DNA of 5,593 nt from Zestosphaera tikiterensis (lineage in GTDB: Archaea; Thermoproteota; Thermoprotei_A; Sulfolobales; NBVN01). How positions within the stretch are numbered: the first letter of the stretch is position 1; every line of letters begins with the position of its first letter. Shown here piece by piece: positions 1-5,593 of this stretch. The stretch lies in assembly GCA_003056265.1 (NCBI GenBank), contig NBVN01000017.1:1-5593 (forward strand), in the 5' to 3' direction. The notes beneath the pieces are model-generated. The model saw only the letters and a program-made list of their open reading frames with translations, made no database searches and was not told where the DNA came from. A program made the translations under genes and the position numbers.

Positions 1-298
1 TAAAAGGTCCTAACCTAAAGCTAAAGCAGTCTATTATCTGAAACGCGCCTTTATCAACGTAACCGTCTATGTCCCAGTTAAAATCTCTAAATAGTGAAAG
101 AACCGCCTCCGAAGAGTCGTCGAAATTCACGTAGACAACGCTACCACCACTCTTAAGGAAATTCCAAGCGATGTGAGCAAGCATTACCGACTTACCGACG
201 CCGCCAGGACCCGCAACAACGGACAGCGAGTTATAGGGAAGCCCTGAAGGTAAGGCCATATCAAGAGGCTCAATACCTAACTTAAACGTCTTAACCAA
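1..298 (-). CDS. RecA-superfamily ATPase of the KaiC/RadB/RAD55 (COG0467-like) type. Only the N-terminal part is present; the gene continues past the left window edge.
   Basis: Minus-strand translation from TTG 298-296 (alternative GTG 307-305) gives VKTFKLGIEPLDMALPSGLPYNSLSVVAGPGGVGKSVMLAHIAWNFLKSGGSVVYVNFDDSSEAVLSLFRDFNWDIDGYVDKGAFQIIDCFSFRLGPF, open to position 1. A GIxxLD motif, then Walker A GPGGVGKS, then FxWD...IID is the layout of archaeal KaiC/RadB-type ATPases. An in-frame stop at 349-347 bounds the ORF upstream. It is absent from the supplied ORF track because the start is non-ATG and the ORF runs off the edge. Confidence 0.75.
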   Translation of the reverse strand, partial: MVKTFKLGIEPLDMALPSGLPYNSLSVVAGPGGVGKSVMLAHIAWNFLKSGGSVVYVNFDDSSEAVLSLFRDFNWDIDGYVDKGAFQIIDCFSFRLGPF

Positions 299-354
299 AT
301 TAAACACCTTAAGATATATGTCTACTTTAAAGTTAAAAATATAGCCCTACGTCG
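299..354. promoter_or_regulatory. Divergent archaeal promoter region between the ATPase gene and the PPC-domain gene.
   Basis: The spacer is A+T-rich and holds TATA-like CTTTAAAG (325-332) and TTAAAAATATA (333-343). These sit about 25-30 nt from ATG 355/364 on the plus strand and from TTG 298 / GTG 307 on the minus strand. That spacing fits leaderless or near-leaderless transcripts. Confidence 0.4.
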
Positions 355-645
355 ATGATATACATGAGGGTAGGAACTATGGGAACCATGATTAAACCTA
401 TTAAAGTTCCGGAACGTTCTGCCTTACCGGACTACGTGGAGAAAGTCGTTCTAGAGAACGGGTTAAAAGGAGGGATGATATTCGGGATAGGAGGGTTTGA
501 AAAAGCCGAGATTGCTTTCTACAACACGCTAACTCAAAAATACGTGGTTAAGGAATACGTAAGTAAGGAAAACAAAATACTTGAAGTGCTCTCGCTTTCA
601 GGTTTCTACAACAGAAAGCGTTCTCCAGATCACGGTATTCCTTGA
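355..645 (+). pseudogene. PPC/DUF296-domain protein, 5' fragment. Native codons run 355-616; from 617 the ORF reads into inserted DNA and stops at 643-645.
   Basis: The translation MIYMRVGTMGTMIKPIKVPERSALPDYVEKVVLENGLKGGMIFGIGGFEKAEIAFYNTLTQKYVVKEYVSKENKILEVLSLSGFYNR has the GIGG...A...Y...(I/L)E(V/I)LSLSG signature of PPC (DUF296) domains. It lacks the following HxH / GGHL half. The last 10 codons (KRSPDHGIP*) are foreign. Confidence 0.8.
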
Positions 646-677
646 TATTCTTAATTACTTTTAGTTCCGTGGTCTGG
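625..677 (+). repeat. Subterminal inverted repeat / long hairpin at the left edge of the insertion.
   Basis: CCAGATCACGG (625-635) pairs with CCGTGGTCTGG (667-677). This gives 11 bp with one T-G wobble on the plus strand (C-A on the minus strand) and a 31-nt A+T-rich loop. The hairpin starts 8 nt inside the insertion boundary. Confidence 0.5.
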
Positions 678-778
678 TTCATCACGTTTCCTCTCGGGGC
701 CCCCCTCACCGCAGTAGCTCTGCTCTAGTTGCCTAGAGCTCCACAGCCCTACGGATCTCGGAACCCCGAGGTCACCAA
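678..778 (-). ncRNA. Candidate structured RNA 'A' of unknown family inside the 235-bp module. Strand is uncertain.
   Basis: This is a G+C-rich island in A+T-rich context. A perfect 7-bp hairpin GCTCTAG/CTAGAGC (722-728 / 733-739) has a loop that reads GCAA (GNRA) on the minus strand. A second hairpin is CTCGG-AACC-CCGAG (757-770). The minus strand carries a GUGAUGA motif (reverse complement of 680-686). The minus-strand start region AACTTATAAATGTATTGG resembles that of RNA 'B'. Counter-evidence: the 754-773 hairpin extends with a T-G wobble only on the plus strand. Confidence 0.3.
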
Positions 779-844
779 TACATTTATAAGTTTAAAAGTT
801 TCAAGTAATTAAGACCTATTCACAATATCTTAGGGTTTCAATAC

Positions 845-851
845 CTTAGAA
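845..851 (+). repeat. CTTAGAA heptamer abutting the IS left end. It is a candidate target/TAM-type motif and is identical to the IS terminal heptamer at 2322-2328.
   Basis: The 7-nt identity is exact. Copy one sits 4 nt upstream of the left subterminal hairpin. Copy two forms the last 7 nt of the insertion, 13 nt after the right subterminal hairpin. Confidence 0.5.
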
Positions 852-855
852 ACAG

Positions 856-875
856 CCTCGTCTTTTGTGGTGGGG
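856..875 (+). repeat. Left-end subterminal hairpin of the IS; also the first part of a repeated promoter module.
   Basis: CCTCGTC (856-862) pairs with GGTGGGG (869-875), giving 7 bp including 3 G-T pairs, with loop TTTTGT. The same arms recur at 2288-2308 and, on the minus strand, at 2647-2666. Confidence 0.55.
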
Positions 876-880
876 AAGGG

Positions 881-888
881 TTTATAAG
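881..888 (+). promoter_or_regulatory. TATA box (TTTATAAG) of the IS-internal promoter. The predicted transcription start is at about G911.
   Basis: TTTATAAG is followed by exactly 22 A+T-rich nt and then the run GGGGCTGG at 911. This matches archaeal TATA-to-start spacing. The same box and the same 22-nt spacing recur on the minus strand at 2640-2633. Confidence 0.5.
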
Positions 889-910
889 TTTTGCGTATTT
901 ATTGTTTTTA

Positions 911-1019
911 GGGGCTGGTTGTGGAGGGCGATCCTCAAGCGGTGGGTGAGGGTTGTGGTTTAGAGGGTGTGTCATGCCATACCTCCCTATCTTCCCTATG
1001 CCCTCCACGGCTGGTTCCC
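911..1019 (+). ncRNA. Structured 5' leader / left-end RNA hairpin of the IS, overlapping the first 33 codons of the tnpB ORF as called in the ORF track.
   Basis: GGGGCTGGTTGTGGAGGGC (911-929) pairs with GCCCTCCACGGCTGGTTCC (1000-1018). The stem is 19 contiguous bp, 6 of them G-U, so it is stable only as plus-strand RNA. An internal hairpin GGGTGTG (965-971) / CATACCT (978-984) has 2 G-U pairs. The 5' arm is G/T-rich and the 3' arm is C/T-rich. Confidence 0.5.
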
Positions 1020-2300
1020 AAATGTAGGAGGGTTAGTGTCGTTAGACTAGTACTAGATAATGAATCTGAAGTAAGGTTAAAGGCCCTATGTAGCTTAACA
1101 TCTAAGCTGTGGAATGAAGTAAACTACGTTAGGAGACGTCAATTCTTCAAAGGAAAAGGAGTTGATTTAAAGGAAACATATAGAGAGTTCTACGAGAAGT
1201 ATAAATCGTTGATAGGTTCTGTGACAGCTCAGCAAGTACTTAATAAGAATGGTGAAGCATGGAGATCGTTCTTCAGCCTACTGAAAGCTAAGAAAGAAGG
1301 AAAGCTACCACCATACATAGCAAAAGTCAACCCACCCGGATATAAAAAGAGAGGGAAAGCTAGAGAGTTATGGGTTGTGTTGAGAAACGATCAGTATAGG
1401 ATTGAAGGAAATAAGATAGTTCTGAAGGGACTGGGAGCCGTAGGGAGGATAGAGATGAAGTACAGAGGGTTAATCCACTTAAAGGGTAAGCAGGGCAGGA
1501 TTGAAATACATTACGATGCCGACTCTAAGAAATGGTATGCATACATATCATTCGAAGTTTATGAGAAAGCTGTTAGAGGTGTGTGGAGGAAGGTTCCTCA
1601 GGCTCCCAAAGGCGATTTGAGGGCTGGAGTGGATATTGGTGTGAATAATTTATTCGCAGTATACGTTGAGAACGGGACATCGCTACTTATTAACGGCAGA
1701 CCGCTTAAAGCTATATCCCACTACTGGAGGGAGAGGATCGCTAAATATCAAAACATTATTAACAAGTATGGTATTAAGTCTTCACGAAAGCTTAGGCTAA
1801 TGTACAGTAAGTGGCGTAGGGAGGTGAAAAGCTTCATAAACACACAAATTAGAAGACTCGTTGAGCGACTCTACGGGAGTGGAGTTTCAGTAATTTACGT
1901 TGGCTACCCGAAGAACATCGCCCAGGAGAGCGGAAACTTCAACACTGTTCAGGTGTGGAGCTACGGATACCTGTTGAGGAGATTAAACGAAGTTAGTGAA
2001 GAATATGGGGTAGCGGTATTATTCGTTGATGAATCCTACACATCTACAACATGCTCAATACACGGCGATAGTTGCGGAAAAAGAATAACGAGAGGACTAT
2101 TTAAATGTACGAAACTGAACAAAGTATTCAATGCAGACATAACAGCGGCATACAACATCTTAATCAAAGGCTTAACCATAACCCCAAACCCCCTAGAAGG
2201 GGTAGGGGTAATGGGCTGGAAACCCAGCCCGGGGCTAAACGAAGCGAATGTAGCCCCAAACCTCCCCACCCTAACAACACCAAGAACCCCCACCCTTTAA
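921..2300 (+). CDS. tnpB: TnpB (IS605 OrfB-type RNA-guided RuvC nuclease). The true start codon is unresolved: in-frame GTGs lie at 921, 942 and 966, and the recognisable TnpB sequence begins at about 1026.
   Basis: The N-terminal region RRVSVVRLVLDNESEVRLKALCSLTSKLWNEVNY is typical of TnpB. RuvC-I is AGVDIGVNNLFAV, with D at 1632-1634. FVDESYTSTTCSIHGDSCGK...C is the zinc-ribbon region. RuvC-III is FNADITAAYNIL, with D at 2136-2138. The ORF is intact, with no frameshift or internal stop. Confidence 0.88.
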   Translation: MEGDPQAVGEGCGLEGVSCHTSLSSLCPPRLVPKCRRVSVVRLVLDNESEVRLKALCSLTSKLWNEVNYVRRRQFFKGKGVDLKETYREFYEKYKSLIGSVTAQQVLNKNGEAWRSFFSLLKAKKEGKLPPYIAKVNPPGYKKRGKARELWVVLRNDQYRIEGNKIVLKGLGAVGRIEMKYRGLIHLKGKQGRIEIHYDADSKKWYAYISFEVYEKAVRGVWRKVPQAPKGDLRAGVDIGVNNLFAVYVENGTSLLINGRPLKAISHYWRERIAKYQNIINKYGIKSSRKLRLMYSKWRREVKSFINTQIRRLVERLYGSGVSVIYVGYPKNIAQESGNFNTVQVWSYGYLLRRLNEVSEEYGVAVLFVDESYTSTTCSIHGDSCGKRITRGLFKCTKLNKVFNADITAAYNILIKGLTITPNPLEGVGVMGWKPSPGLNEANVAPNLPTLTTPRTPTL

Positions 2301-2348
2301 AGGCGGGGAGGAGGTCAGATGCTTAGAAGCGATGGTAGGATATTCACG
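2186..2348 (+). ncRNA. Candidate omega-RNA (right-end RNA). The scaffold overlaps the tnpB 3' end and the right end of the IS, and is followed by about 20 nt of flank-derived guide.
   Basis: G+C rises sharply over the last ~110 nt of tnpB. A three-way junction can be drawn from three elements: a closing stem 2199-2208 / 2264-2272; the hairpin GGGCTGG-AAAC-CCAGCCC (2213-2230); and the hairpin GGGGCTA-13 nt-TAGCCCC (2231-2257). The hairpin at 2288-2308 follows. The IS ends at 2328, so the guide would be GCGATGGTAGGATATTCACG (2329-2348). The placement follows the established TnpB/omega-RNA architecture. The RNA ends are not determinable from sequence. Confidence 0.55.
2288..2308 (+). repeat. Right-end subterminal hairpin of the IS. 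The tnpB stop codon lies in its loop.
   Basis: CCCCACC (2288-2294) pairs with GGCGGGG (2302-2308), with one A-C mismatch on the plus strand that becomes G-U on the minus strand. The loop is CTTTAAA. The arms match the left-end hairpin at 856-875. Confidence 0.55.
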
Positions 2349-2471
2349 CATATCCACGTAGTTTTAGGCTTAGATCATGACGTCTTATGTGGTGGTCATT
2401 TAATAAGAGGTTTTGTAAAACCTCAGGTTGAGGCCTTCCTCGTGGAGGTTGCTGACGGCTCTCCGCCATGA
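2329..2471 (+). pseudogene. PPC/DUF296-domain protein, 3' fragment.
   Basis: In frame with the 5' fragment once 617-2328 is removed, it reads (S)DGRIFTHIHVVLGLDHDVLCGGHLIRGFVKPQVEAFLVEVADGSPP*. This carries the HxH...GGHL half of the PPC domain. The stop TGA is at 2469-2471. Confidence 0.8.
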
Positions 2472-2610
2472 ATGGCGGAGGTTCTCCCCCTAGGGCTTCC
2501 ATCACCTTTCTGAAGCCCCTCACCGGGAGTGCATCACCCATCAGTTCCCGCCGTCAGCTCCGGGAAGGTGTGGGACTCATCCCAAGCTACGGTTACCCAC
2601 ACCCAACCCA
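2451..2610 (-). ncRNA. Candidate structured RNA 'B' of unknown family, with two K-loop/K-turn-like motifs (possible L7Ae sites).
   Basis: On the minus strand the 5' hairpin is GGGTGTGGG/CCCACACCT (2604-2596 paired with 2574-2566; 8 Watson-Crick pairs plus one G-U) with a GGG/CCC extension. A 9-bp helix GCTGACGGC/GCCGTCAGC (2558-2550 / 2459-2451) then encloses three hairpins. These are GGGA..CUGA-UGG-GUGAUG..UCCC (2549-2525), GGGCUUC-AGAAAGGUGAUG-GAAGCCC (2518-2493) and CUCCGCCA-UUCA-UGGCGGAG (2480-2461). The start is predicted from TATA 2640-2633 plus 22 nt. The 3' end is undefined, but a hairpin plus T-run at 2424-2403 is possible. Confidence 0.45.
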
Positions 2611-2632
2611 ATACATATTAAGTTAGAGAAAG

Positions 2633-2666
2633 CTTATAAACATTTACCCCGCCTTAAAAGACGGAG
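2633..2666 (-). promoter_or_regulatory. Hairpin plus TTTATAAG promoter module driving RNA 'B'. It is homologous to the IS left-end module at 856-888.
   Basis: The minus strand reads CTCCGTC-TTTTAA-GGCGGGG (2666-2647; 7 bp, 2 G-U), then TAAATG, then TTTATAAG (2640-2633), then 22 nt, then TGGGTTGGGTGTGG. The IS has CCTCGTC-TTTTGT-GGTGGGG, AAGGG, TTTATAAG, 22 nt, GGGGCTGGTTGTGG. Confidence 0.5.
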
Positions 2667-2761
2667 CCTCAATGATTGGTGAGGTTCTTAAGCAGGAGTT
2701 TAAGCATAGGGACGTAAAGACGTGAGTGTGGAAAGCCTTACTCGTCGATGGGGTCGTGTTT

Positions 2762-4114
2762 ATGGGGAGGAAGTCGGTGTGTATTGTTGGGGGTGGTCTT
2801 GCAGGCCTATCCACAGCTTACCACCTCCTTATTAAGGGTGTGAAGGACATTACTTTGATTGAGTTAAGCGATAGAGTTGGCGGCCTTCTAAAGTCTGAAG
2901 TTATCTCAGGATATACATTCGACGTCGGCGGTTCGCACATATTATTTAGTAAGAATTTAAGGACTCTTAACGAAATGCTTAACTTACTTAAGTGGGATGT
3001 GGTTAAACATTATAGGAATGCTAAGGTATTCTACAAAGGAACTTTCGTGAAATACCCGTTTGAGAATGGGTTAGGTGACCTACCCCCTGAGGAAAGGTTT
3101 GAATGCGTGTGGGATTTAATTAATACCTACGTTAAGAGAGTTAAGGGTGAGTTACCACAACCTAAGAATTTCCGTGAGTGGATAGTCTACGTGTTTGGAA
3201 ACGCTATAGCGAGTAAGTACTTAATACCTTATAATGAGAAGATATGGAAGGTGGACTTAAGCGAAGTAAGTCTTGAGTGGGTTGAGGGAAGGGTTCCAAA
3301 CCCACCTTTAGAAGACGTCGTTAAAAGTGCTGTAGGTTTAAGCGTAGAGGGTTATACACATCAACTTAATTTTTACTACCCATCATCAGGCGGTATAGAG
3401 TCTTTAGCTAAGGCGTTAAGCAAGGAAATCATCAACAAAGGCGTTGAGGTTTTGTTAAACAAGCCTGTGAAGCTTATCCGTAAATCAATAAACGGTATGT
3501 TGTTAGTTGAAGCTGAAGGTGTTGAGAAGGTTTGCGATGCGGTGGTGTATACAGCGCCTTTAAATAGATCTGCTGAAGTCCTAAGTGAGTTACTTAACGA
3601 CTTAAGCAATTCTTTAAAGGCTTTAAGATCCGTTCCCTTAGCGGTCGTGGGGTTGGCGGTAAGGGGGGAGGCGCTACCCTACCATTGGGTTTACTTCCCA
3701 AGCAGTAAGGAGTTATTCCATAGAGTTGCTATATTAAGTAACTTCTCACGAAGTAACGCTCCTGAAGGTGGTGTAGCGTTAATAGCTGAGGTCTCCTTCA
3801 GAAGTTTAGATGAGATGAACGCCGTAAGCGATGATGAACTCATTCATAAGGTTTACCAAGATTTAGAAGGGTCAGGTCTTGTAAGAAATCCAAAGCTGGA
3901 GTTCGGGGTTGTGCGACGTTGGGCTGACGCCTACATAATATACGACACTATTAGAAGCTCAGTTTTAAAGGAGGTCGTTAATAAGTTGAGGAAATACGGT
4001 GTCTACCCACACGGAAGGTTTGGTTCTTGGGAGTATTTAAACATGGATGCCGTATATGAGAAGTCCGCGAAGTTAGCGGATGAGGTTGTGACGTATTTAA
4101 CTAGGGCTTCCTAA
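2762..4114 (+). CDS. FAD-dependent oxidoreductase of the amine-oxidase / protoporphyrinogen-oxidase (HemY-like) / UDP-galactopyranose-mutase-like superfamily.
   Basis: The N-terminal dinucleotide-binding motif is SVCIVGGGLAGLSTAY...ELSDRVGG. Other matching motifs are FDVGGSHILFS, NFREWIVYVFGNAIASKYLIPYNEKIWKVDLSEVSLEWV, FYYPSSGGIESL and the C-terminal HGRFGSWEYLNMD. The ORF track starts at GTG 2726. ATG 2762 places GxGxxG 9 residues from the N-terminus and is preferred. The specific substrate cannot be called. Confidence 0.8.
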   Translation: MGRKSVCIVGGGLAGLSTAYHLLIKGVKDITLIELSDRVGGLLKSEVISGYTFDVGGSHILFSKNLRTLNEMLNLLKWDVVKHYRNAKVFYKGTFVKYPFENGLGDLPPEERFECVWDLINTYVKRVKGELPQPKNFREWIVYVFGNAIASKYLIPYNEKIWKVDLSEVSLEWVEGRVPNPPLEDVVKSAVGLSVEGYTHQLNFYYPSSGGIESLAKALSKEIINKGVEVLLNKPVKLIRKSINGMLLVEAEGVEKVCDAVVYTAPLNRSAEVLSELLNDLSNSLKALRSVPLAVVGLAVRGEALPYHWVYFPSSKELFHRVAILSNFSRSNAPEGGVALIAEVSFRSLDEMNAVSDDELIHKVYQDLEGSGLVRNPKLEFGVVRRWADAYIIYDTIRSSVLKEVVNKLRKYGVYPHGRFGSWEYLNMDAVYEKSAKLADEVVTYLTRAS

Positions 4115-4179
4115 CGTTCGTTTCCTTAACCGTTATTACTTCCCAAACAGATATTTCAACGGGATGTTAGAAGGTGTTG

Positions 4180-5593
4180 ATGCGTTTCTACCTCTTAGAC
4201 GTTAGTTATGAAGTTGAGGGTAACGTACCAGTAATTCTCATGTGGGGTTTAAAAGAGGACTCAACCCCTATCTTAATTAAGGATAATACCTTCAGACCTT
4301 ACTTCTACGCCTTAGTTGAGGATGAGAAGGCATTACCTGAAGTGAGGAAGAGGGTTAAGGCTTTAAGCAGGCCTTCCTCCCCCATACTTGAAGTCGTTGA
4401 AGTCGATAGGAAATACTTCGGTAAGCCGGTGAAAGCTTTAAAAATAACTACTTTAATCCCTGAAAGCGTAAGACATTATAGGGATGAGGTCTCTAAAATA
4501 CCTGGAGTTAAGGAAGTTTTAGAAGCGGATATTAGGTTCTCCATGAGGTACGTAATAGATAGGGACGCCCTCCCATGCGGTTGGTACGAAGCTGAGGTTG
4601 AGGTTTTAAGTAGGGATGCCAGGTATAGAGTTCCTGAGGTCTATCTTTTAAAGAGTGGTTTAAGAAGGATTGAGAGGAACCTACCACCGAAGCTTAAGGT
4701 TTTAGCGTTTGACATAGAGGTTTACAGCCCTTCAGGGTCTTTAAGGCCTTCTAAAGACCCTATAATCATAGTGGCGTTAGCCAACAACGACGGGGACGTT
4801 AAAGTACTTACCGCTGAGGATTTAAACAACGATGGAAAACTTATTGAGGAATTCGTTAATTACGTGTTGACTTACGACCCAGACATCATAGTAGGCTATA
4901 ACTCAAACATGTTTGACTGGCAATACCTACTCAGCAGGTCTGAATTCCTGAAGGTTAAGCTAGATGTTGGCAGAGCTAAGGGCGGCATCCCAAGACAGTC
5001 GGCTTACGGGCATATATCAGTTCCTGGGAGGCTTCACGTAGACCTCTACAACTTCGCCGAGGAAATACCTGAGATTAAGCTAAAGTCCTTAGATGAGGTA
5101 GCCGATTACCTAGGGGTTATGAAGAAAGATGAACGCACTTTAATACCTTGGTATGAAATACATAAGTTCTGGGACGACTTAAGTAAGAGACCCTTACTTG
5201 AGAAATACGCTAAGGAAGACGCGATATCCACGTTAGGCTTAGCTGAGAAGTTCCTACCCTTCGCTATGCAGTTATCAAGCCTTACAGGACTGCCTTTAGA
5301 TCAGGTAGGGGCTGCTTCAGTCGGTTACAGACTTGAGTGGTATTTAATGCGTGAAGCCTTTAAATACGGTGAGCTCATACCGAATAGGGTTGAGAGGGAG
5401 TACGAACCCTACAAAGGAGCTATAGTTTTAGAGCCTGCTAAAGGCGTTCATGAAAATATAGCGGTGTTGGACTTCACCTCAATGTACCCTAACATCATGA
5501 TTAAATATAACATAGGTCCTGACACATACGTTGACGGCGAATGCGGTGTTAACGAATGCTACATCATACCAGAGCTGAAGTATAAGTTTAGAG
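4180..5593 (+). CDS. polB: Family B DNA polymerase, N-terminal 471 codons. The gene continues past the right window edge.
   Basis: The frame is open from ATG 4180 to the window end. The N-terminus MRFYLLDVSYEVEGNVPVILMWG...FRPYFYALV matches family B polymerases. Exo I is LAFDIEV, Exo II is IVGYNSNMFDWQYL, Exo III is YAKEDAISTLGL, and polymerase motif A is VLDFTSMYPNIM. The short N-terminus resembles PolB3 / euryarchaeal PolB more than the crenarchaeal PolB1 type (tentative). A TATA-like ATATTT at 4151-4156 sits about 27 nt upstream of the ATG, which suggests a leaderless mRNA. The ORF is absent from the track because it has no stop in the window. Confidence 0.9.
   Translation, partial: MRFYLLDVSYEVEGNVPVILMWGLKEDSTPILIKDNTFRPYFYALVEDEKALPEVRKRVKALSRPSSPILEVVEVDRKYFGKPVKALKITTLIPESVRHYRDEVSKIPGVKEVLEADIRFSMRYVIDRDALPCGWYEAEVEVLSRDARYRVPEVYLLKSGLRRIERNLPPKLKVLAFDIEVYSPSGSLRPSKDPIIIVALANNDGDVKVLTAEDLNNDGKLIEEFVNYVLTYDPDIIVGYNSNMFDWQYLLSRSEFLKVKLDVGRAKGGIPRQSAYGHISVPGRLHVDLYNFAEEIPEIKLKSLDEVADYLGVMKKDERTLIPWYEIHKFWDDLSKRPLLEKYAKEDAISTLGLAEKFLPFAMQLSSLTGLPLDQVGAASVGYRLEWYLMREAFKYGELIPNRVEREYEPYKGAIVLEPAKGVHENIAVLDFTSMYPNIMIKYNIGPDTYVDGECGVNECYIIPELKYKFR

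Follow-up and report, generated by a model that had tools for sequence, protein, structure and literature searches.

The tnpA-relic helix is found at the 5' end of a tnpB reading frame in an archaeal DNA stretch of 5,593 nucleotides assigned to Zestosphaera tikiterensis (contig NBVN01000017.1, positions 1 to 5,593; hereafter, the window). It lies within a tnpB-only, tnpA-deleted insertion sequence (IS) of the IS200/IS605 family and ISDka2-like clade, at positions 847 to 2318 of the plus strand. The conserved part of tnpB is preceded by a leader that is homologous to tnpA coding sequence and is kept in frame with TnpB, which is under purifying selection. As RNA, the plus strand of this region forms a helix that is conserved, with covariation, in 54 distinct elements. 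The helix probably hides the short mRNA leader and the start codon and so limits translation, which in full-length elements would be that of TnpA and in the window that of a fusion between the tnpA relic and TnpB. The repressive effect itself is suggested by the arrangement of the sequences. No description of this helix was found in the literature searched.

The helix in the window and in related elements

In the window, positions 911-929 (GGGGCTGGTTGTGGAGGGC) pair with positions 1000-1018 (GCCCTCCACGGCTGGTTCC) through 19 uninterrupted pairs, comprising 13 Watson-Crick and 6 G-U pairs. The 5' arm (911 to 929, plus strand), as delimited by folding and by comparison of the 54 elements, includes the whole leader of about 10 nucleotides, the GTG codon at 921-923 and the next two codons. 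The 3' arm (1000 to 1018, plus strand) consists of the former tnpA codons for C-P-P-R-L-V-P, which lie 221 nucleotides past the start codon in full-length elements. Between the arms (930 to 999, plus strand) is a diverged tnpA remnant whose sequence varies, with a 21-nucleotide length difference among copies; RNAalifold analysis of eight copies yields the 19-bp helix only, and no conserved structure or peptide was found in the interior. An unpaired CTCAAGC sequence (codons S/P-Q-A) just past the 5' arm, at window positions 930-940, is kept in L126-L134, L136 and the L048 lineage. It is thus present in the copies that share the fusion to tnpB, in their closest full-length relative and in the L048 lineage, and is missing from most other full-length elements.

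The folded plus-strand RNA has an energy of -53.3 kcal/mol (z = -3.0), which 1 of 200 shuffled sequences equals. The minus-strand RNA folds at -38.2 kcal/mol (z = -2.0) and lacks the long helix, and the plus strand folded as DNA is not better than shuffles (z = -0.37). An earlier, sequence-only reading had proposed a promoter-proximal structure that acts as RNA and is specific to the plus strand, and these folds agree with it. The features that it listed, namely a TATA box at 881-888, the 19-bp helix with six G-U pairs, and in-frame GTG codons at 921, 942 and 966, are all present, and the occurrence of the same helix with strong covariation in 54 related elements places it beyond chance.

Several other identities were considered for the structure. 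A bulge-helix-bulge intron, which requires two 3-nucleotide bulges separated by a 4-bp helix, is ruled out by 19 pairs that contain no bulge, and an intrinsic terminator is ruled out because no run of T residues follows the 3' arm. No Rfam match was found at 856-1040, even at E <= 1, and no tRNA genes were found.

Full-length elements carry both arms 221 nucleotides apart. Their helix, of 18 to 19 bp, joins the leader of about 10 nucleotides, the start codon and codons 2-3 to tnpA codons 75-81 (C-P-P-R-x-x-P); the L008 helix is formed by 5' GGGGGTGCCGTGGAGGGC and 3' GCCCTCCACGGCACTCCCC. With its interior reduced to 70 nucleotides, the window version has the appearance of a simple hairpin. For the analysis of covariation, both arms were extracted by homology from the 54 distinct elements and joined by a fixed linker, and pairs were then counted. 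Standard pairs occupy 95.5% of the 1026 cells, compared with 41-54% when the 3' partner is slid by one to three columns. Both sides have changed in 11 of the 19 pairs. None of 500 shuffles reached the observed percentage of paired cells, number of cells changed on both sides, number of further pair types or covariation score, and a single one reached the observed count of pairs changed on both sides.

The start codon shares in this pattern. Its first base (column 15) forms a U-A pair in 32 elements and a G-C pair in the other 22, so that start-codon pairing of the kind expected from IS200-type occlusion is conserved, with covariation, in 54 of 54 sequences. A TTG start faces CCA-AGG and a GTG start faces CCA-CGG, a synonymous switch of Arg codons that tracks the start codon 221 nucleotides upstream. 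Such a covarying codon switch cannot come from protein constraint. Similarly, C or T at position -2 tracks AGG or AGA in the 3' arm. The duplex between the true start region and its partner has an energy of -44 kcal/mol in L008 and -39 kcal/mol in L013, compared with about -20 kcal/mol for other candidate starts. Extrapolated folding parameters predict that the window helix withstands heat, with a pairing probability of 0.91 at 80 C that declines to 0.75 at 90 C.

Because non-Watson-Crick cells comprise 90 G-U and 16 A-C combinations, selection acts on the sense strand. Transposition of IS200/IS605 elements proceeds by way of a single-stranded top-strand DNA whose ends are structured, and the helix is on the top (sense) strand, adjoining the left-end hairpin. 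Pairing might therefore serve the excision or integration of DNA by TnpA, rather than function in RNA. This explanation is very improbable. In DNA, 6 of the 19 window pairs would be G.T, and the DNA fold is not significant, which also led to rejection of a DNA cruciform or single-stranded DNA hairpin. The predominance of G-U among non-canonical pairs argues in the same direction, and the helix begins at the predicted 5' end of the transcript and is centered on the start codon. To our knowledge, no role for so long a helix exists in TnpA mechanisms.

The helix has also persisted through deletions. The spacing between arms is 54, 56, 77, 134, 167, 182, 194 or 209 nucleotides in elements other than those with the standard 221, and at least five differently deleted derivatives retain both arms, although the main search required both arms and derivatives that lost one are under-sampled. 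The breakpoints differ by lineage: L060 lacks only the interior, L057 lacks only part of the C-terminal half, and L048 lacks both, with breakpoints elsewhere than in the window. The clearly decayed copy L045 has a stop codon that interrupts the frame of its tnpA remnant, and it aligns to the query TnpB over residues 34-90 only; no convincing 5' arm of L045 came out of the arm search.

Survival of both arms in every deletion derivative found could also mean that the helix is kept for some other RNA role, perhaps as a 5' stabilizer of the transcript that yields the guide RNA or as the precursor of a left-end small RNA (sRNA), with concealment of the start codon being incidental. Compatible with this idea is a mini-element without open reading frames (ORFs) on the minus strand of the window (2432-2667), which has the same left-end hairpin, TATA box and 41-nucleotide spacing to a GTG within a 5' hairpin. 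In addition, the 5' untranslated region (UTR) hairpin of IS200 is reported to be processed to a regulatory sRNA (PMC5435999). However, the mini-element is a single example and possibly a recent decay product. Moreover, the start codon is always within the helix and covaries with its partner, which a mere 5' clamp would not need, and this explanation is considered unlikely.

More distant tnpB-only lineages, namely L027 and L105 (Sulfolobales), L097 and L040, again have a left-end hairpin, a TATA box and a start-containing hairpin. The L040 example (positions 2880-3010), from a Thaumarchaeota metagenome-assembled genome (MAG; WYEM01000018.1), places an ATG within the 5' arm of a promoter-proximal 22-bp hairpin. 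From this ATG the frame runs into a TnpB (RRTNVV) that lacks its own start, so the same design is present in another phylum-level lineage. Among distant Bathyarchaeia elements, the helix is absent from L032, which is the sole one testable, as tnpA was not located in L033, L034, L035 or L044.

The tnpA remnant and the start of TnpB translation

Comparison loci were drawn from genomes and metagenomes. In full-length relatives, the order of features is TTAC, the left end AACTGAAAG, a subterminal hairpin (CCTCGCC-TTTTAA-GGCGGGG), a TATA box, about 33 nucleotides, tnpA and tnpB. The tnpA gene encodes a Y1 transposase of about 146 amino acids and opens with GTG or TTG followed by GAG-GGC, and its stop codon overlaps the tnpB ATG. 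Among full-length relatives, L134 is the closest; its TnpB is 81% identical to that of the window, and its TnpA matches the Pfam family Y1_Tnp with E = 3.7e-38. Thermogladius sp. 4427co, a cultivable host, carries another full-length copy (L020).

When aligned to L134, window positions 838-1053 correspond to a full-length left end with two gaps. The first gap, of about 145 nucleotides, is within tnpA, and the second, of about 185 nucleotides, extends from just past the CPPR codons to the tnpB start. The leader is a 35-codon ORF (921 to 1025, plus strand) in which codons 1-7 (VEGDPQA) correspond to TnpA residues 1-7 and codons 26-33 (LCPPRLVP) to TnpA residues 74-81. The L134 protein reads VEGDSQAW at its start and, from residue 74, LCPPRLAPAF, in which Cys is residue 75; the corresponding leader sequence in the window is VEGDPQAV...LCPPRLVP. 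On this match, positions 921-1025 are what remains of tnpA after two deletions, and GTG 921 is the tnpA start codon. The second deletion fused the relic in frame to tnpB and removed the tnpB ATG. The 33 codons that the sequence-only reading regarded as a translated stem are instead homologous to tnpA coding sequence (VEGD.QA at the N terminus and LCPPRL.P at residues 74-81), and are the two ends of a collapsed gene.

TnpB proper occupies positions 1026 to 2300 of the plus strand, from its Arg-Arg codons to its stop codon, and has no start codon of its own. Pfam searches identify both OrfB_IS605 (PF01385, E = 1.8e-22) and the Cas12f1-like zinc-ribbon/TNB domain (PF07282, E = 6.4e-14), which are the domains expected of a TnpB. 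Homologs of the 459-amino-acid window ORF are ISDka2-type TnpB proteins with the same two domains, and the window protein matches solved TnpB/Cas12f structures with E down to 4.7e-9. Most of the homologs begin with M-[KR]-R-[TA]-S-[VI]-V at the codon preceding 1026, which is TGT (1023-1025) in the window.

The RuvC-I Asp (GVDIG) and RuvC-III Asp (NAD..A.NI) are conserved in the window TnpB and in homologs P0001-P0120. The position aligned to the RuvC-II Glu of a solved TnpB structure reads IYVGYP throughout the family, and the nearby Glu of AQE is Gln in several members (window 1860-1930, VSVIYVGYPKNIAQESGN). The catalytic Glu may have been relocated in this TnpB clade.

In-frame start codons in the window are GTG 921, 942 and 966, and the next is a TTG at TnpB codon +62. 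Nine fusion copies are available as DNA (the window, L126, L128, L129-L133 and L136), and in all nine the frame is open from the 5'-arm GTG into TnpB. The leader is 105 or 84 nucleotides long, the sole insertion or deletion being of 21 nucleotides, and 16 further proteins among the top 120 matches share the VEG...LC[SP]P extension. The 5'-arm GTG is the only in-frame start found in every fusion copy. In L132, there is no other start between an ATG located 11 codons upstream of this GTG and codon +119. For TnpB, the ratio of nonsynonymous to synonymous substitution rates (dN/dS) is 0.07-0.19 at dS values of 0.5-1.7 between the window and seven other fusion copies. A TnpB body under such strong purifying selection must be expressed, and because no tnpB start of its own is left after the deletion, TnpB would be translated from the tnpA GTG with a 35-residue extension derived from tnpA. 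Use of GTG 921 in the window is our inference from these comparisons.

Of the three readings first proposed for the region, comparison best fits initiation of TnpB within the hairpin and its occlusion there as in IS200, with GTG 921 the sole conserved in-frame start. A separate left-end RNA, the second, is conceivable, and the third, an unusual initiation mechanism, is not needed. A peptide kept across a broken stem had been named as the pattern that would speak against an RNA structure. The copies present the opposite, in that compensatory changes keep the stem and the interior peptide varies in sequence and length.

The leader might alternatively be untranslated, with TnpB starting from some non-canonical codon around 1023-1026, or the copies of the fusion clade might be decaying pseudogenes. 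No canonical start adjoins the conserved TnpB N terminus, the left end of the window copy is degenerate, and 35 codons free of stops are not improbable in a G+C-rich stretch. Against this, the TnpB genes are of full length and have the low dN/dS values given above over substantial dS. Leader length remains a multiple of three across the 21-nucleotide difference, with the frame open in every DNA copy and in the 16 further proteins. Also, the codon before Arg-Arg varies among fusion copies (TGT, TGC, GTC, CAT and TAT), so there is no fixed alternative start. Both versions of this alternative are highly doubtful.

Other candidate signals near the junction were rejected. The sequence AGGAGG is indeed present at 1026-1031, as the sequence-only reading noted, although the Shine-Dalgarno (SD)-like role suggested for it does not hold. 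It is the TnpB Arg-Arg codon pair, which varies synonymously, and a ribosome-binding site was dismissed because the corresponding Arg-Arg or Lys-Arg codons read AAGAGA, AGAAGA or AAGAGG elsewhere. The ATG at 1022-1024, followed at once by TAG, likewise exists and is not a conserved signal, being absent from L128 and L129-L133. Its use through a +1 frameshift or start-stop reinitiation was rejected, since only the window and L126 have it. A pseudogene with a 1-nucleotide insertion, in which deletion of T1025 would give MRRVSVV, the N terminus of P0005, was replaced by the deletion-fusion explanation after the junction was compared across copies.

Annotated starts of the fusion genes (P0001, P0025, P0003 and others) are inconsistent, some being placed at a 3'-arm codon and others at a later TTG or even before the TATA box, and database N termini for this clade are therefore unreliable. 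P0025 was considered as a counter-example with a broken frame and was rejected, because its leader is open and in frame and the gene caller picked a later TTG. Neither P0001 nor the window protein gave a record in exact-match look-ups.

The distance from the TATA box to the start codon is 38-44 nucleotides, most often 41, in 55 elements. Given the usual position of archaeal TATA boxes relative to transcription starts, this spacing predicts that transcription begins 9-12 nucleotides upstream of the start codon, where the 5' arm itself begins (about 911 in the window). An mRNA of this kind would have the helix at its very front, with both the start codon and the entire short leader in paired form. 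As soon as transcription has passed the 3' arm, the helix would close over the 5' end and the start codon and block initiation on a nearly leaderless mRNA, so that ribosomes might gain access only until the 3' arm has been synthesized or during transient opening of the helix. In full-length elements, this would restrain TnpA together with TnpB, whose translation is coupled to that of TnpA. The relic-TnpB fusion of the window would be restrained as well, and more tightly than in full elements because the loop is only 70 nucleotides.

Several points weigh against this proposal. The start site near 911 is a prediction from TATA spacing, and the energies at 80-90 C come from extrapolated folding parameters. 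The stop-free leader is weak evidence for translation, as frame +1 is also open in six of eight copies, and the eight or nine fusion copies have a common ancestry, which means that frame conservation reflects few independent events. In addition, retention of a start-codon-containing 5' hairpin by the ORF-less mini-element (2432-2667, minus strand) hints at a role for the helix other than in translation. Occlusion of the start codon nonetheless remains the probable function.

More speculatively, the helix might serve this archaeal IS clade as a regulatory RNA module and be retained when tnpA, or in one case every ORF, has been lost, whether as a heat-labile switch that frees TnpA and TnpB translation under thermal stress, as the precursor of a trans-acting left-end sRNA, or as a protector of the guide-RNA transcript. 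We hold this broader idea only tentatively and do not expect it to be correct.

For annotation, dozens of archaeal TnpB genes that seem to lack a start or to have odd N-terminal extensions are in-frame fusions with tnpA relics, and their start belongs at the tnpA GTG. With respect to regulation, a long-range helix backed by covariation buries the tnpA start codon across the ISDka2-like IS200/IS605 clade of hyperthermophilic archaea. The helix provides a testable handle on how levels of TnpA and TnpB may be controlled in archaea with leaderless mRNAs. In practice, removal of the leader is advisable when these thermostable TnpB nucleases are expressed.

Element boundaries and neighbouring features

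The window TnpB is 96% identical to the TnpB of a Zestosphaera tikiterensis MAG. Genes flanking the element encode a KaiC-like ATPase, a PCC-domain protein, an amine oxidase and a family-B DNA polymerase, according to Pfam. Element ends common to the relatives are TTAC|AACTGAAAGCCTCGCC... on the left and ...GGCGGGGAGGAGGTCAG| on the right. Similarity among 12 copies is lost immediately after GGCGGGGAGGAGGTCAG (GGTCAG), which fixes the right end at 2318; the left edge is approximate (847-850). IS200/IS605 elements insert on the 3' side of a fixed tetranucleotide that adjoins the left end. The sequence at this place is TTAC in most left ends read, TATAC in L126 and TTAG (846-849) in the window.

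The left-end subterminal hairpin (856 to 875, plus strand) is homologous to the family hairpin CCTCGCC-TTTTAA-GGCGGGG and is presumably recognized by TnpA. In the window copy it is degenerate, with arms CCTCGTC and GGTGGGG. It is followed by the archaeal TATA box of the former tnpA promoter (TTTATAAG, 881-888, plus strand), which is conserved in all aligned left ends. The right-end hairpin (2287-2309) is related in sequence to the left-end hairpin (CCTCGNC..GGNGGGG), and both are kept in relatives. The window element therefore carries a subterminal hairpin at each end and lacks terminal inverted repeats, as is characteristic of IS200/IS605 elements. In place of a Y1 (HUH) tnpA gene it has the 105-nucleotide relic only, whereas full-length relatives of the L134 type carry Y1_Tnp. 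By this gene content, the window copy is classified as a non-autonomous IS200/IS605 derivative, not a complete member. Its left end (841-875) has TTAG in place of TTAC, divergence over the first 10 or so nucleotides and a hairpin in which three of seven pairs are G.T. The window copy may have become resistant to excision by TnpA, although its TnpB is intact.

The right end (2211 to 2318, plus strand) contains the 3' guide-RNA (omega RNA) scaffold, including the right-end hairpin, and is conserved in 12 copies up to GGTCAG. Rfam HgcC (RF00062) matches at 2211-2331 with 21.6 bits and at 2567-2444 with 19.0 bits, both of which are below the gathering score of 50. HgcC-type RNAs are known noncoding RNAs that overlap the 3' end of tnpB (PMC4615843).

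The mini-element at 2432-2667 (minus strand) looks like an IS200/IS605 derivative and is arranged tail to tail with the TnpB element. Reading along the minus strand, it has the left-end-type hairpin at 2667-2646, the TATA box at 2640-2633 and the GTG at 2600-2598 in a 5' hairpin, about 41 nucleotides after the TATA box. These are followed by a large structured body (z = -3.0) and a right-end-like hairpin (CCTCCGCCATTCATGGCGGAG-AGCCGTCAG) at about 2452, and the sub-threshold HgcC match of 19 bits falls within this mini-element. This mini-element could be a stand-alone guide-RNA gene under a left-end promoter. No sequence similar to it was found in the fetched loci. Its 'VGNR' start was considered as kin of the P0036 and P0037 leaders and was rejected, and similarity to L135 is short and probably due to chance.

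On the minus strand at 650-790, a TATA-like box (about 790-784) precedes an irregular, G+C-rich hairpin of about 115 nucleotides with an energy of -52.8 kcal/mol (z = -3.9), for which Rfam gave no match. It has 75% similarity over 62-73 nucleotides to L067:3677-3748 and L006:3212-3272, and could represent a small RNA gene, as yet undescribed, that lies close to the element beyond its left end.

A different upstream ORF is found in Wolframiiraptor-type loci (L011, L012, L017, L024-L026 and L099-L125), which encode TnpB relatives of 54-59% identity. This ORF, about 100 nucleotides upstream of tnpB, ends in ...YRGYVGKAMDYV..LYEVLGGE*, with a stop codon that overlaps the tnpB start, and it is unlike the C terminus of the Y1 TnpA of ISDka2-like elements.

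Comparison with known systems

Ordinary tnpB-only elements of the IS1341 type and PATE-like mini-elements resemble the window element in being non-autonomous, in having left-end and right-end hairpins, a TnpB gene and a 3' guide RNA, and in presumably being mobilized by TnpA in trans. However, ordinary tnpB-only elements have their own tnpB start, whereas the window clade appears to use the promoter, start codon and regulatory helix of tnpA by means of an in-frame fusion. The HgcC, sotRNA or omega RNA (PMC4615843), a known noncoding RNA of TnpB loci, is encoded by the same element (2211-2318), but it is located at the opposite end and has another function, and the 5' hairpin is not part of it.

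The closest parallel to the helix is the left end of IS200 in Salmonella and E. coli (Beuzon 1999; Ellis et al. 2015, PMC4513863), which belongs to the same IS family. It contains a terminator hairpin and a 5' UTR stem-loop that sequesters the SD sequence and blocks binding of the 30S subunit (PMC4513863). The left-end order of subterminal hairpin, tnpA promoter and an mRNA structure that hides initiation is the same, and both structures act or would act in cis on the sense strand; that of IS200 keeps transposase levels low. In Salmonella, the processed 5' UTR hairpin of IS200 forms the 5'tnpA sRNA (PMC5435999); for the window, too, it is conceivable that a structured 5' piece of the transcript persists as a separate RNA.

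The differences between the two systems are substantial. The IS200 structure is a local stem-loop (nucleotides 69-138) in a bacterial 5' UTR of about 100 nucleotides, in which the SD sequence is sequestered with the backing of the antisense sRNA art200 and Hfq. The window clade has no such local stem-loop. Its archaeal mRNA is predicted to be nearly leaderless (about 10 nucleotides) and to lack an SD sequence, the start codon itself is paired, and the partner arm is within the coding sequence, at codons 75-81 and 221 nucleotides downstream in full elements. The window element has, moreover, outlived the loss of tnpA, and its helix would then gate TnpB. This suggests that a known kind of self-restraint, the translational occlusion of a transposase, takes a new form in these archaea and has been re-used to gate TnpB after tnpA was lost.

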